Source: an uncultured Aliarcobacter sp. (GTDB lineage Bacteria > Campylobacterota > Campylobacteria > Campylobacterales > Arcobacteraceae). Taken from it: a DNA stretch of 64,000 nucleotides. Shown one piece after another: positions 32,963 through 38,900 of the stretch (position 1 is the first letter of the stretch; the number at the start of each line of letters is the position of its first letter). The stretch is taken from assembly GCA_963664305.2 (NCBI GenBank), contig CAXXLV010000001.1, positions 936,458 through 1,000,457 of the forward strand. The letters run 5' to 3'. Made by a program: the position numbers.

Positions 32963-35900
32963 AGGCCGTACGTTCGAATCGTACTGGGAGTACCACTTTG
33001 AGCGGGAGTAGCTCAGTTGGCTAGAGCTTCTGCCTTCCAAGCAGACTGTCGCGAGTTCGAGTCTCGTCTCCCGCTCCATTTTAAAGGCTTTGTATAGAAA
33101 GTTTTGTACTTTTTATGCAAAGCCTTTTTTTATTTATATATTCTCAATAATGCTTTTACTTTTTTTAAAACTAAACATATATTTATATAATTGATATTTA
33201 TTTTGGGCATAAAAAAAGCCCTTGTAGATGTACTACAAGGGCTTAATATAAAGATATTGAATAGATTATTTAAATATCGATAAAAGGACACCAGCAGCAA
33301 CTGCTGAACCAATAACACCAGCCACATTAGGACCCATCGCATGCATTAATAAAATGTTCGATTTGTCATAAAGTTGACCTTCTTTACTAACAACCCTTGC
33401 TGCCATTGGCACAGCAGATACTCCAGCTGCTCCAATTAAAGGATTTATTTGACTCTCTTTTGAACTTACTAAATTCATGATTTTTGCCATTATTACACCC
33501 ATTGCAGTTCCTGCAGCAAATGCTAAAAGACCAATTGCCATAATACCTAATGTCTCAGCTACTAAGAATTGCTCTGATGCTAGTTTTGAACCAACACCTA
33601 ATCCTAAAAATATTGTTACAATATTAATTAATGCGTTTTGCATTGTATCAGAAAGTCTATCAACAACTCCTGATTCCCTTGCAAAATTTCCAAAACATAA
33701 TGCTCCAATTAATGGTGCAGCATCTGGTAAAATTAATAAAGTTAAAGATAATACCACTAATGGAAATACAATTTTTTCTAACTTAGAAACCTTTCTAAGT
33801 GTAGACATTTTTATTTTTCTCTCTTTTTCAGTAGTTAATACTCTCATAATTGGTGGTTGAATTAGTGGTACTAATGCCATATATGAATAAGCAGCAACAG
33901 CAATAGCTCCAAGTAATTCAGGTGCAAGTTTTGAAGCAACGAAAATTGATGTTGGTCCATCAGCTCCACCAATAATAGAAATTGCAGCAGCTTGTTCTAA
34001 TGTAAAGTTAATTCCTGGAACAAATTGTGCTAATAACACTGCACCAACTAATGATCCAAAGATTCCAAATTGTGCAGCTCCACCTAATAATGCAGTTTTT
34101 GGATTAGCTAATAATGGACCAAAGTCTGTCATAGCTCCAACACCCATAAAGATTAATAATGGGAAGAATTGATTTGTAATACCCATACTATAAATAATTC
34201 CTAACATTCCATCATGTCCTGCCATATTTGCTATAGGAATATTTGCTAATAATCCACCAAATCCAATAGGAATTAATAATAATGGTTCAAACCCTTTTTT
34301 AATTGCTAAATAGAATAATAAGAAACAGATGAAAATCATGATGATTCTTCCATACCCTTGAGCAAAGAATGTCATCTCTTTTCCATGTGAATCTAATACA
34401 CCAGCTTGCGGTTCAAACAAGGCTTTAATACCAGTTGTTGCATAAAACGAATCAACTAGTTCACCCATTGTTTTTGAATGATAAGGCTGTTTTTCTTCTG
34501 TTGGTGTTTCAACACTTGGTGTTGAAGCAAAACTATTTAGTGCAAATGCACTAAATAGAAGAAAAATTGCTATTAATATATTTTTTTTCATTAATTACCC
34601 TCAAATTATTAACCAATAATGGCTAATGTTTGTCCTTCATCAACAGCTTGTGTATTTTCAACTAAAATCTTAGTAATAACTCCAGAAACTGGTGCAGTTA
34701 TATCTATTTCCATTTTCATTGCTTCAAGAATCATGATTTGTTGATCTTTTTCAACTCTATCACCTTCTTTTACTAAAATTTTCCAAACAGCTCCATTTAC
34801 AGCAGCTGGTACTTCAGTTCCACCATTTGAAGCAGGTGTTGAAGCAGCAGGTGCTGAACTTACTGTATTTGAAACAGGAGTTACTTGAATATCTGCATTT
34901 CCTTCAGCAATTGTTACATTAAATCTTTGTCCATCAACTACAACTGTATAGTTTCCACTAGCATTTGCCATTTTATTCTCTCCTAATTTACAATCTTTAT
35001 TATCTTCACAAACAGTATCATTTTTTCTTACATTTAAAGGTGATTCACCTTTTAAGAATGCAATTCCTTTTTCATCACAAGCAGCAGCAATAAAGATATT
35101 TTCTTCAGTTGCTTCAATTCCTTCAATTTCTAATCTTTGTTTCCAAACAGAGATTTTTTTCTTTTCATCTCTATCTGCGATATCTAAAGGATTTTCACAT
35201 GTAGGTTCAAGTTTTAGTTTTTCAGCTGCAAGTCTTACTACTTCAGCATCTGGTTCAACTGGAGTTTTACCAAAGTAACCTAAAACCATTTTTCCATAAC
35301 CAGGAGCAATTTGTTTCCATGGACCAAACATAACATTTGCGTATGCTTGTTGCCAATAGAATTGTGAAACTGGAGTTACAGATGTACCATATCCACCTTT
35401 TTCAACAACTTCTCTCATAGCTTTAATAACTTCTGGGAATTTATCTAAAGTTCCATTATCTCTCATCATTTGAGTATTTGCAGTTAATGCACCACCTGGC
35501 ATTGGAGAGAATGGAATTAAAGGAGAAACTTGTGTAGCTTCTGGTGGGATAAAGTAATCTTTTAAGCAGTTAGCTAATACATCTTGGTATTTTAGAATTT
35601 TATCAATTTCTAAACCACCTAAATCGTAGTTTTTACCTTTTACTGCATGAAGCATAGTTAAAATATCTGGTTGAGAAGTTCCACCACTAACAGGAGAGGC
35701 AGCTAAATCTATACCATCAGCTCCAGCTTCTAAAGCTGCTAAATAACAAGATACAGAAACACCAGCTGTTTCATGAGTATGAAGTCTAATATGAGTATCA
35801 TTACCCACTAATCTTCTTGCCATTTGGATTGTTTCATAAATTTTTTGAGGAGATGAAGTACCTGATGCATCTTTAAAGCATAAAGAATCAAATGGTAACC

Positions 35901-38900
35901 CACTATCAAGAATATTTCTTAAAGTTTTTTCATAGAAAGGTACATCATGAGCACCAGTACAACCTGGAGGTAAATCCATAAGTGTAACAACTACTTCATG
36001 GTTAAGACCATATTTTTTAATACATTCAGCACTATATTCAAGATTTTGAACATCATTTAATGCATCAAAGTTTCTAATTGTTGTTGTTCCATGTTTTGCA
36101 AACATTTTTGCATGTAAGTCGATTAATTCTCTAGAACCAGTATCAAGCATTACAGTGTTGATACCTCTAGCTAAAGTTTGTAAGTTTGCATCTGGTCCAA
36201 CGATTTCTCTAAATTTGTCCATCATTTCAAATGCGTTTTCTTGTAGATAGAAGAATAAAGATTGGAATCTTGCTCCTCCACCAAACTCAAAGTGAGTTAT
36301 ACCTGCTTCTTTTGCAGCTTCTACGGCTGGAAAGAAATCTTTCATTAGGACTCTTCCCCCAAAGACAGATTGGAATCCATCTCTAAAAGTTGTATCCATG
36401 ATATCTATATATTTTTTAGACATATATTTTAACCCTTCAGATTTTTATGATGTTGTATTGCTGCTACTATTGCAGCCATTTTTGCAGCTTCAGTTTTTCC
36501 GTTATTTGTTACTATTGGAGTATTATTTACTGGTTTCTTTTCTTCTTGTGGAAAAAACTTTGTTAATATTATCCCTTGTGCTTTTAGTACAAATATCATT
36601 ATTGTTAGGAATGCAAATACTACTCCCATCCCTAAAAACATAAACTTTACTGATTCTGCGATTAAGTTTACTTCTTCCATGTGGAAATCCTTTTATTTTG
36701 AATAATCAAATAAATGATTTAAACGGGTGTAATTTTAGGGAAATTTAGTAAAATCTTCTTCTTTTTTAGTGTGAAAAAAATTGTTTTATAGTGCTTATTT
36801 TATAGTTATATTGTGTTATAATGCAATCATGAAAAAAGAAACGTTACAAAAAAGAACAAAAATAGCAAATGACATAATGTATTATATTTATACTCATATT
36901 GAGACAAATATTGATATAGAAGAGTTAAGTATTGATTTGGGTGTAAGTAAATTTCATATGCATAGGATTTTTAAAGAAGCATTTGGAAAAAATATCTATG
37001 AAAGCATCAAATCAATTAGACTTCAAAAAGCATCAAATCTACTTTTAACAAATAAATACTCGACAATTTCTAATATTGTAAATCAATGTGGATACTCTTC
37101 TCAATCATCTTTTATAAAAATATTTAAAGATAGATTTGAAATGAGTCCAAAAGAGTGGAAAAATGGTGGATATAAAGAATACTCTCATAAAATCTTACAA
37201 CAATCTCAAAGAGCAATGCAATCAAAGGCAAATTTTAATGATATGGTTCCAACAATTGTAAAAATGCCAGCAATTGAGAGTTATTATATTAGAAATAAGG
37301 GTTATAACGTAAATATAAAAGAGACATGGCAAAAATTACAAACTTGGGTTTTAACAAATAATATTCAATCATATAGAAGAATTGCACTTTTTCACGATAA
37401 TCCAACAATTACACCTTTAAATGAGTGTCAATATATTGGATGTATAGAAGTTGATGATAAAGAGAGTGTAAAAAGTGATAGATTGCCAAACTTTAAAATT
37501 GCAGAAGGTGTTTATGCAAAATTTCATTTAAAAGGAAAAACAGGAGATGTTCTTCCTTTTATTCACTGGGTTTACCATGAATGGTTGCCAAAAAGTGAAT
37601 ATGAAACAACAACAAAACCATCATATGCAATATACGATAAACTGGACTTTTTTGATGAGAATAATGAGTTTGAATTAAGCTTTTATGTATCAATTAACTT
37701 TTAGTAAATAATATTTAATTATAATTGCACAAATTTTTTCTAGAAAAAGGTCGAAAATGGTTTTATATTTACTAGCAATTATTGCTGGATTTGGTATTTT
37801 AGTTTGGAGTGCAGATAAATTTGTAGAAGGCGCTGCTAGTACAGCTAAGCACCTTGGAATGCCAAGTTTATTAATTGGTATATTAATTGTTGGATTTGGA
37901 ACAAGTGCTCCTGAGATGGTAGTTTCTGCAATTGCTGCTATGGAAGGAAATCCTGGTCTTGCTCTTGGAAATGCAATTGGTTCAAATATAGTAAATATTG
38001 CTCTTATTTTAGGGGTTACAGCTTTAGTTTCACCAATTGTTGTAAATTCAAATATTGTAAAAAAAGAGATGCCTTTATTACTTGGAATAGTATTGATTTC
38101 AGGATATTTATTAATAGATAATAGTTTGACATTAGTTGAAGGTATAGTTTTATTAGCTGGTTTCTTTAGTTTAATTGCTTGGTCAATAGTTTCAGCATTA
38201 AAATCAAAAAATGATGCCTTAGCAACAGAATTTGAAGAAGAATTAGTTGAACATGAAATGAGTTTAAAAGCTGGTATTTTTTGGCTTGTATTAGGAATTG
38301 TATTATTAATTGCAAGTTCAAGACTATTAGTTTGGGGAGCTGTTGGTGTTGCTCATGAATTTGGTGTTAGTGATTTAATTATTGGATTAACAATAGTTGC
38401 ACTTGGAACTTCATTACCAGAACTTGCTGCATCTGTTGTAGCTGCACGTAAAGGTGAACATGATATTGCAATTGGAAATGTTGTTGGTTCAAATATGTTT
38501 AATCTTTTAGCTGTAATTGGTATTGCAACAGTAATTGCACCAATGGATAATATTCCACTTGAAGTATTACAAAGAGATTGGATTATAATGTTATTATTAA
38601 CAATAGCTCTTTTAGTAATGGCTTATGGATTTAAAAATAAAGAAGGAACAATTACAAGATTAGAAGGAACAATTTTAATTATTTGTTATGTTGCATACAA
38701 CACTTATCTAGGTTTAAATTTAACTGGAAGTATATAAAACTTAACTATTATTTTGAGATAACCATCTTTCTAGAAACTCTTTTCTAGAATAGGTTATCGC
38801 ACCTAAATCAAACTTATATTGCATATATGGATGTCCTAAATTCCAAAAAGAAAAATTCTCATTTTTTAAATAAATTGCTAGTAAAACAAGTTGTAATTTT

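Follow-up and report, generated by a model that had tools for sequence, protein, structure and literature searches.

The operon for a putative Na+-pumping oxaloacetate decarboxylase's gamma, alpha and beta subunits (oadGAB) is present twice in this Aliarcobacter genome. Very probably a single copying event, early in the genus, placed it in a slot opposite an AraC/GyrI-like regulator, and the two copies have since been homogenised repeatedly by gene conversion, a form of recombination that involves no crossing over. Such conversion best explains the identity of the oad copies, and its combination with an account in which the alpha subunit is shared between two enzymes is probably the best overall explanation of the data.

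The two oad copies

The window (the whole stretch of 64,000 nucleotides that was analysed) contains the converted block at 33265..36674 (no strand assigned), which matches C2:575953-579362 at 3410 of 3410 bases, as the initial annotation had reported. The three genes lie on the minus strand: oadG for the gamma subunit (36429..36680, 83 aa; above the TIGR01195 cut-off, and PF04277), the gene for the alpha subunit OadA/PycB, with carboxyltransferase and biotin carrier (34609..36423, 604 aa; below the oadA and PycB cut-offs), and oadB for the Na+-translocating beta subunit (33266..34591, 441 aa; TIGR01109, 531 bits against a cut-off of 191). The first two codons of oadG fall outside the block. 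A terminator-like hairpin with a T run, read directly from the sequence, ends this copy (33211..33244, minus strand), and downstream of the operon lies a cluster of seven tRNA genes (32365..33078, plus strand), a place where insertions vary in relatives, whose downstream genes differ. On its other side is the divergent AraC/GyrI-like regulator (36829..37704, plus strand, longest ORF from 36781; PF12833, PF06445), and behind that a calcium/sodium antiporter family gene (37757..38737, plus strand; above the TIGR00367 cut-off), found in 10 of 11 AraC-site loci. In the other copy, pckA starts 29 bases downstream.

The comparison used one genome per species, and the two-copy set (n = 12) comprised 11 genomes of the genus and G087 from another genus. 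The hosts are water and gut bacteria. The oad sites were syntenic in 12/12 two-copy genomes, with the AraC and pckA sides unswapped. Thus, the proposed pair of fixed sites was upheld in the 11 genomes, except that the whole of oadGAB is doubled in only nine (G003 has oadGA twice, and G038 lacks oadB at the AraC site), and that the name thiG/AraC site fits only in part, since the AraC side is constant whereas thiG lies downstream in just six of the 11 stretches fetched. An old duplication in many species was likewise borne out for oad, with the qualification that nine more finished genomes of the genus have no second full oadA. Both sites carry a full oadA in 11 of 20 finished genus genomes and one copy has been lost or cut in nine, while all 20 retain oad genes or remnants at the AraC site. 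Divergence has brought these remnants to 72-82%, which makes the second site an old one. In draft genomes contigs break at the edges of the oad repeat, and short-read assemblies drop oad genes.

Identity stops, as had been claimed, at the gene borders: in 11 of the 12 genomes its limits lie no more than a few bases from where oadG starts and from the final stop codon; in G038 it stops 70 bases before oadA. Neither a transposase nor shared terminal repeats, the marks of a transposon-like mobile element, were found at the block ends, and the block consists of three genes. Only coding sequence is common to the two copies because only coding sequence was ever homologous. Crossing over was considered, and its sign, swapped flanks, was seen in none of the 12 two-copy genomes; crossovers between the copies would delete or invert more than 1 Mb and would presumably be purged.

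The identity between copies within a genome is 99.3-100% in 10 genomes and 96.5% in G038, as first described. For oadA, copies in the 11 genus genomes are 99.1-100% identical within a genome, against best values of 84-95% between genomes, and third codon positions are 98-100% identical within genomes, against 64-90% to G000 between genomes. In the oadA tree the copies pair by genome in 11/11 cases, as had been noted, and also in G087, and lone surviving copies from either site are intermixed. Species-specific indels are common to both copies, with equal lengths in 12/12. The oadA pairs are 100% identical in six of the 12 genomes and differ by 0.2-0.9% in six; the remaining differences between copies are clustered in two of four genomes tested and not significantly so in G010 and G006, which is a hint only. 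In G038 and G004 alpha has been converted and gamma is split by site. Conversion is not universal: in G181 and G183 the second oadB is only ∼80% identical to the genome's own other copy and groups by site.

The regulator slot and the alpha subunit

The second oad copy occupies the regulator slot that relatives use for pycA: in G026, and in 27 of the 44 genomes of other genera that carry pycA, the regulator and pycA lie divergently. In G087, where pycA is absent, the second operon also sits at this slot. The promoter region in the window (36717..36824, minus strand, by profile match) has direct repeats ∼21 bases apart in common with the pycA promoter. A profile trained without G000 matched this region with E = 2e-17 and the region before pycA with E = 5e-8, while the best match in the reversed genome had E = 2.2. 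Among the genus genomes tested, 15/15 have the motif before pycA (E no higher than 0.014), and of the pckA-site copies 0/20 have it; in G130 pycA has no motif. A wider regulon was considered, as the second-best motif match in G000 precedes a PF03600 transporter (C2:855510-856895); since five related loci gave no match better than E 0.04, the two weak ones lying inside the gene, it was not counted.

The label 'Na+-pumping oxaloacetate decarboxylase' is apt in that the gamma, alpha and beta genes stand together; it is incomplete in that alpha scores 315.9 bits against TIGR01108 (oadA, NCBIfam), below the cut-off of 756.5. Alpha also falls below the cut-off of the PycB family NF006761 (303.6 bits against 402). 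The pyruvate carboxylase of Campylobacter jejuni has two subunits, PycA (Cj1037c) and PycB (Cj0933c), the latter encoded beside pckA (Cj0932c) according to PMC4178425. In two C. jejuni records (L262 and L315; the locus numbers come from PMC4178425, and the sequences compared are those of the records, not of the strain tested there) the gene preceding pckA shares 67-69% identity with alpha. Here too alpha precedes pckA, and pycA is unlinked in both organisms. The two C. jejuni loci differ in having one alpha gene and no oadG or oadB, whereas here alpha lies within oadGAB, twice. By identity and pckA linkage, alpha is the orthologue of Campylobacter PycB. The gamma-alpha-beta order, and the occurrence of several copies in different operons, resemble the OadGAB systems of Klebsiella, Salmonella and Vibrio, multiple oad clusters being given for K. 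pneumoniae in PMC2735749; unlike in these, alpha here belongs to a distant subfamily (316 of 756 bits), and the copies are tied to pckA and to a pycA regulator rather than to citrate or tartrate fermentation. For Campylobacterota, PMC13147460 includes the proposal that the pump works as a carboxylase. In Sulfurospirillum, PMC6242987 gives an alpha-(beta)-pckA cluster with alpha named 'pyruvate carboxylase/oxaloacetate decarboxylase' and beta present in one species and absent from others; its account of the cluster describes no duplication, regulator slot or shared-subunit model.

Because it is the orthologue of Campylobacter PycB, alpha, on balance, probably works both with the Na+-moving OadB/OadG and with PycA, the ATP-using biotin carboxylase, and would serve both the Na+ pump and a pyruvate carboxylase. 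Its E-x-M-K-M-E motif is invariant (43/43 aligned). PycA, a second stand-alone biotin carboxylase beside the AccC type, is encoded at C2:1300349-1301800 (483 aa), and this type also occurs in 42 of 43 other genus genomes. Alpha is kept without oadB in 10 finished genomes, every one of which has pycA. More broadly, pycA is present in 31/34 genomes without an oadB match against 56/150 with one, some of the 34 being draft assemblies broken at the repeat and kin not being independent. Against a PycB-only role, oadB is kept at the AraC site in nine two-copy genomes. Also against the overall account stand the lack of pycA in G087, the AraC-site alpha genes of G016, G039 and G015, which are cut to the carrier part, and the motif-less pycA of G130. 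A prediction of PycA (330-483) in complex with alpha (440-604, two copies) scored 0.00 and counts neither for nor against.

Alpha may also be the source of a free biotin carrier. The gene holds a conserved putative internal start, with an SD-like word at 34980-34984 and an ATG at 34969-34971 (Met485), opening a putative nested in-frame gene for a 120-aa biotin-carrier piece (34609..34984, minus strand). The Met485 position is Met in 89/94 sequences and has the SD-like word in 79/94, compared with 92/1894 other Met codons, and the stand-alone carrier genes of four genomes start at its equivalent. No prior description of this start was found in the openly accessible papers searched.

We tentatively propose a fuller scheme, in which an AraC/GyrI regulon moves one carboxyltransferase subunit from an ATP-driven carboxylase to a Na+-coupled membrane enzyme and back, the output slot of the regulon has been refilled several times in this family (with pycA, oadGAB or oadG-oadB), selection sets the reach of conversion gene by gene, and the internal start of oadA gives extra free biotin carrier. 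On the shared-subunit account, which is on balance probable, the regulator would ancestrally have driven pycA; in the genus it would drive both pycA and the second alpha gene, so that pyruvate carboxylase would receive its PycB half on demand from the second copy, the pckA-linked one keeping its own promoter. Conversion would persist for alpha, where either copy's product has to be able to stand in for the other's, and lapse where the copies specialise, as with gamma after beta loss and the carrier-only remnants. The account predicts that the gene annotated as 'oadA' by some Campylobacterales genomes and as 'pycB' by others encodes one subunit with two partners, which bears on CO2 fixation into oxaloacetate in these bacteria.

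It is rather unlikely that conversion is real and yet a neutral by-product, with the second copy serving the Na+ pump alone, through dosage or separate control, and alpha having no PycB role. This would suit the presence of oadB at both sites in 9/11 genomes, the filling of the slot with oadGAB in G087 and its kin despite their lack of pycA, the positions of the AraC site (∼250 kb from dnaA) and the pckA site (beside the GC-skew turn), and the up to three oad clusters in different Klebsiella operons given in PMC2735749. It does not suit the single alpha type per genome (E 1e-12), with no other partner gene for PycA seen, the survival of alpha after oadB loss, the promoter motif common to pycA, or the escape of gamma from conversion only where that site has lost beta.

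Age of the duplication and origin of the identity

That the slot already held a second oad operon in the family ancestor, lost many times since, which would make the duplication much older than the genus, is improbable. Although oad genes occur at the slot in four lineages, one of them deep-branching, pycA occupies it in 28 genomes of 11 genera, no slot locus read held both pycA and oad, and G026, inside the genus though placed at an open fork, has the pycA layout. A single origin of all oad-filled slots in the family was rejected on the regulator tree (four changes; one clade, p-AU 1.8e-54).

Recent, independent duplication of the operon in each species is very improbable: the junction is shared and the remnants have diverged, which largely refutes it. 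Convergence at the slot does occur, as it has been filled with oad genes in ∼4 separate family lineages; within the genus, however, the regulators that adjoin oad, 20 in number, group in a single clade (100/100), and none of the 20 finished genomes lacks oad genes or remnants at the slot.

Assembly or polishing, raised initially as a possible homogeniser of repeats, could be suspected from the six fully identical oadA pairs and because several finished genomes may be long-read assemblies. It is nevertheless a highly improbable cause, in view of the six pairs that differ, of the drafts that break at the same block edges, and of the contigs from runs X3, X4 and X7 that start or stop exactly at 33265 and 36674. 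Run X4, an unrelated metagenome, yields one 3410-base contig with exactly the block's ends, 78 letters off G000, so polishing was not the cause; its depth is 12.8 against 7.45 and 5.98 beside it, but depths are not copy numbers and the contig ends are the evidence used. Strong purifying selection alone, which the conserved proteins might suggest, is refuted by synonymous sites, since within genomes third positions are as identical as the rest, yet 10-36% off G000 between genomes, and by the indels shared between copies. Old duplication with ongoing gene conversion, as originally put forward for oad, is thus well supported by the unswapped sites, the third positions, the pairing by genome and the run X4 contig.

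The leuB and glyA pairs

The gene leuB is present twice (C1:324852-325925 and C2:378601-379674, 97.8% identical), as the initial annotation stated. Doubling in the same two contexts was confirmed to the extent that two matches occur in 8/44 genomes, with only the upstream gene shared (8/8). The copies pair by genome in six of the eight, G030 being unpaired and G011 unresolved, and one copy has stops in G010 and G011. An old genus-wide pair was not sustained: the second leuB is patchy in distribution, adjoins a phenol hydroxylase cluster (5/5 tested), lies in G006 on a 189-kb second contig and bears signs of transfer between lineages. It sits on a phenol-degradation island of mobile appearance, and the host's leuB overwrites it.

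The glyA genes, a third pair at distant sites, had been missed. Their copies pair by genome in 16/16 cases across five genera, at syntenic sites in 16/16. The duplicate is already published, the pair corresponding to the lysS-linked glyA1 and ada-linked glyA2 of Arcobacter (Miller et al. 2009, PMC2755481); the conversion is not. That paper states 'no compelling evidence' of conversion within sequence types, whereas the pairing found here is across species.

Long-lasting concerted evolution of dispersed paralogues is established for tuf, amoCAB, psbA/D, tkt, dxs and eftAB (Wang and Chen 2018, PMC6053082). As in the cases presented there, copies are syntenic in at least five species, pair by genome, and are converted together as whole complexes; unlike in those cases, the end of conversion can be traced one gene at a time within the oad operon. 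Neither oad nor glyA nor leuB figures among the 26 genes tabulated there, and 'Arcobacter' and 'Campylobacterales' are absent from the four supplements searched. Within the same literature search, no report of gene conversion in Aliarcobacter was found, nor, judging by title or abstract, any paper on concerted evolution of the oad, glyA or leuB pairs in Arcobacter; pyc, oad and glyA go unmentioned in the main text of the A. butzleri genome paper. Three core-metabolic loci thus join the few protein genes of bacteria for which long-range concerted evolution is on record. Copies that escaped, within the family and even within one operon, serve as built-in negative controls, with which one can test directly whether it is selection or mere homology that limits how far conversion reaches. 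The glyA locus used for Arcobacter typing exchanges sequence with its twin.

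The oad, glyA and leuB duplicates

In the window, oadG (36429-36680), an alpha gene of 604 aa (34609-36423) and oadB (33266-34591), all on the minus strand, lie opposite an AraC/GyrI regulator. The block 33265-36674 recurs with zero differences at C2:575953-579362, on the second contig, as the initial annotation had stated. The alpha subunit is 90-92% identical to the nearest named records, Aliarcobacter-titled ones among them. Self-comparison of the genome (G000) gave three dispersed metabolic pairs: oad (100%), leuB (97.8%) and glyA (99.3% including edges, the coding parts being identical); the annotation had listed the first two and missed glyA. 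The rest comprised a 5.7-kb repeat in four copies, which we take from its size to be the rRNA operons, tandem arrays and a few other paralogues. A dispersed 344-aa gene pair (C2:815889-817278 and C2:92243-93632, 96.5% identical) has both members in variable regions.

An artefact was rejected as the source of the identical copies. In run X4, an unrelated metagenome, one 3410-base contig corresponds exactly to 33265-36674 and is 78 letters off G000; its depth is 12.8 versus 7.45 and 5.98 for the flanks, depths that do not equal copy numbers. Since this contig is single and unbranched, both copies of that population would carry all 78 changes. Contigs of runs X3 and X7 likewise begin at 33265 and stop at 36674, draft genomes break at these same block edges, and depths in run X1, possibly the window's own source, were 18-21 versus 10.4. 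Leftover differences between copies were clustered in G001 and G033 (0 of 10 000 shuffles) and not significantly so in G010 (p 0.12) and G006 (p 0.16).

Two full alpha genes were found in 11 of the 20 finished genomes (1-2 contigs) among the 44 of the genus set. In keeping with the claim of the same two places across species, all 11 have one alpha at site A, opposite the AraC/GyrI regulator, and one at site P, between an S24-type repressor and pckA; no flanks were swapped between the sites in these genomes. Within genomes the oadA copies are 99.1-100% identical, and against the best other genome 84-95%. At third positions, identity is 98-100% within genomes and, between genomes, 64-90% to G000. 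The copies pair by genome in the tree in 12 of 12 cases, including G087 from another genus, which bears out the initial annotation. The further claim that identity is confined to the genes holds in 11 of 12, where it spans the first oadG codons through the final stop codon, but not in G038, where identity starts 70 bases upstream of oadA. Among the remaining nine finished genomes the P copy was cleanly lost in five; in four, a full copy remains at one site and the biotin-carrier end alone at the other, 72-82% identical to the full copy. Surviving A and P copies of decayed genomes are mixed together in the tree, as expected if they were homogenized prior to loss. Outside the family, two matches occur in 2 of the 168 genomes having any match.

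The glyA copies adjoin lysS and ada in all 11 genus pairs analysed (sampled from the 19 genomes of the genus in which two full, near-identical matches occur) and in all five pairs taken from three further genera. They pair by genome in 16 of 16, with within-genome identity of 94.8-100%; the five outside pairs are 82-85% identical to the best other genome. Two drafts, G057 and G058, have four equal-scoring matches apiece. This duplicate has been described before, in a paper that gives 'no compelling evidence' for its conversion (PMC2755481).

Two leuB matches are present in 8 of the 44 genus genomes. The second copy is preceded by a short-chain dehydrogenase in all eight, with varying downstream genes, and phenol hydroxylase genes lie near it in 5 of 5 tested. 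Pairing by genome, also proposed for leuB, stands for six of the eight; the second copy of G030 groups with G001, and the tree leaves G011 unplaced. The G005 dehydrogenase is 89.6% identical to its G002 counterpart (most pairs, 78-85%), which suggests that the island was transferred and its leuB then overwritten. In G010 (locus L065) the native leuB has stops, leuD is not adjacent and the island copy is intact; the duplicate thus seems to have replaced the native copy.

The gene conversion is genuine and belongs to a known kind, at loci new to the published list we saw. What sets this case apart is the slot swap, the escape of single genes and a probable two-partner subunit; no earlier description was found in a literature search whose scope took in a minority of subscription papers.

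Borders of conversion

In G038, oadB is gone from site A. The alpha genes of this genome match each other at 99.7%; its gamma genes differ by 34 non-synonymous and 7 synonymous codons. The draft G004 has the same layout, and its A-site gamma region is 88% identical to the G038 A copy and 78% to its own P copy. Two genomes of another genus, G181 and G183, have a short oadG and oadB at site A, ∼80% identical to the P copies of the same genome, and these genes group by site (support 100/99). Homogenization of duplicates of this size is therefore not automatic. We infer that selection fixes the border of conversion; alternatively, an early indel would have removed homology and so set the border.

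The regulator slot and proposed partners of the alpha subunit

In other genera, pycA, encoding a 483-aa biotin carboxylase, lies opposite the same regulator, often with carbonic anhydrase next. By coordinates, this layout is present in 27 of the 44 pycA-bearing genomes outside the genus, and inside it in G026. Elsewhere in the genus, where 42 of 43 genomes have pycA, it lies away from the slot. A promoter profile trained on 52 regulator-side intergenic regions, G000 left out, gave its best G000 matches at site A (E 2e-17), a transporter gene (1.6e-10) and pycA (5e-8); the best E against reversed G000 was 2.2. All 14 additional genus genomes tested, and G046 as well, had a match upstream of pycA; G130 had none there, and none of 20 site-P promoters was matched. 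A weak match (E 0.007) lies between a paralogous AraC regulator and its divergent gene at L355:3637-3721 (G000 C1:389636-389720).

In the regulator tree the 20 genus regulators form one clade (100/100), and oad-filled slots fall in four separate groups; a single clade of all such slots was rejected (p-AU 1.8e-54). The slot content of the three outside groups is oadGAB or oadG-oadB, and pycA was not found in the six of their genomes read at this slot (G087, G089, G096, G159, G181, G183).

The alpha subunit scores below both family cut-offs, oadA and PycB. In two C. jejuni records, neither of which shows oadG or oadB, the gene immediately preceding pckA is 67-69% identical to alpha. A review (PMC4178425) identifies Cj0933c, beside pckA Cj0932c, as the PycB subunit of a pyruvate carboxylase that had been tested. 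Within the family, pycA is present in 31 of the 34 genomes without an oadB match (some being drafts broken at the repeat, the 10 finished ones forming one clade) versus 56 of the 150 with one. The simplest reading is that alpha would depend on beta, PycA or both as partners, one of them being provided by the regulator slot; in the genus, the slot would give extra alpha along with pycA. Against this two-partner reading, oadB is retained at site A in 9 of 11, and only gamma and the carrier end are left there in three genomes.

A putative internal start in oadA and the flanks of both sites

Just ahead of the carrier region, 89 of 94 alpha sequences, which are kin, have a Met in the variable linker; in ∼3 of these it is probably a different Met. 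An SD-like word, varying in spacing and frame, accompanies the linker Met in 79 of 94, versus 92 of 1894 at other Met codons; the signal is absent or doubtful in families f8 (four genomes read) and f18 (two read). Carrier-only genes in four genomes start at this Met. Judged from sequence, a free biotin carrier is likely made from a putative nested start inside oadA; the rival explanation is that the signal is left over from an old gene fusion. At the pckA site of G014 (L027), an oadG remnant without membrane helix, its C-terminal motif present three times, is directly followed by a carrier-only alpha gene.

Also at the pckA site, a 31-aa ORF with a ribosome-binding site lies between the S24-type repressor and oadG (L001:9486-9581, minus strand; G000 C2:579485-579580). 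It is conserved between genera, an ORF scan finding it in 14 of 20 loci, and G012 retains it despite oad loss; its position opposite the repressor resembles that of Cro-like genes. In the window, tRNA-Gly and tRNA-Arg are repeated inside a tRNA cluster (32774-33081), and at this point relatives have, downstream of oadB, what we take to be an integrase or genes resembling cydAB. Long tandem arrays of 366-bp and 561-bp units, near 100% identical, occupy window positions 53040-64000 and the two ends of each contig, C1 and C2; the assembly breaks at them, and the 366-bp array switches direction near C1:995011.
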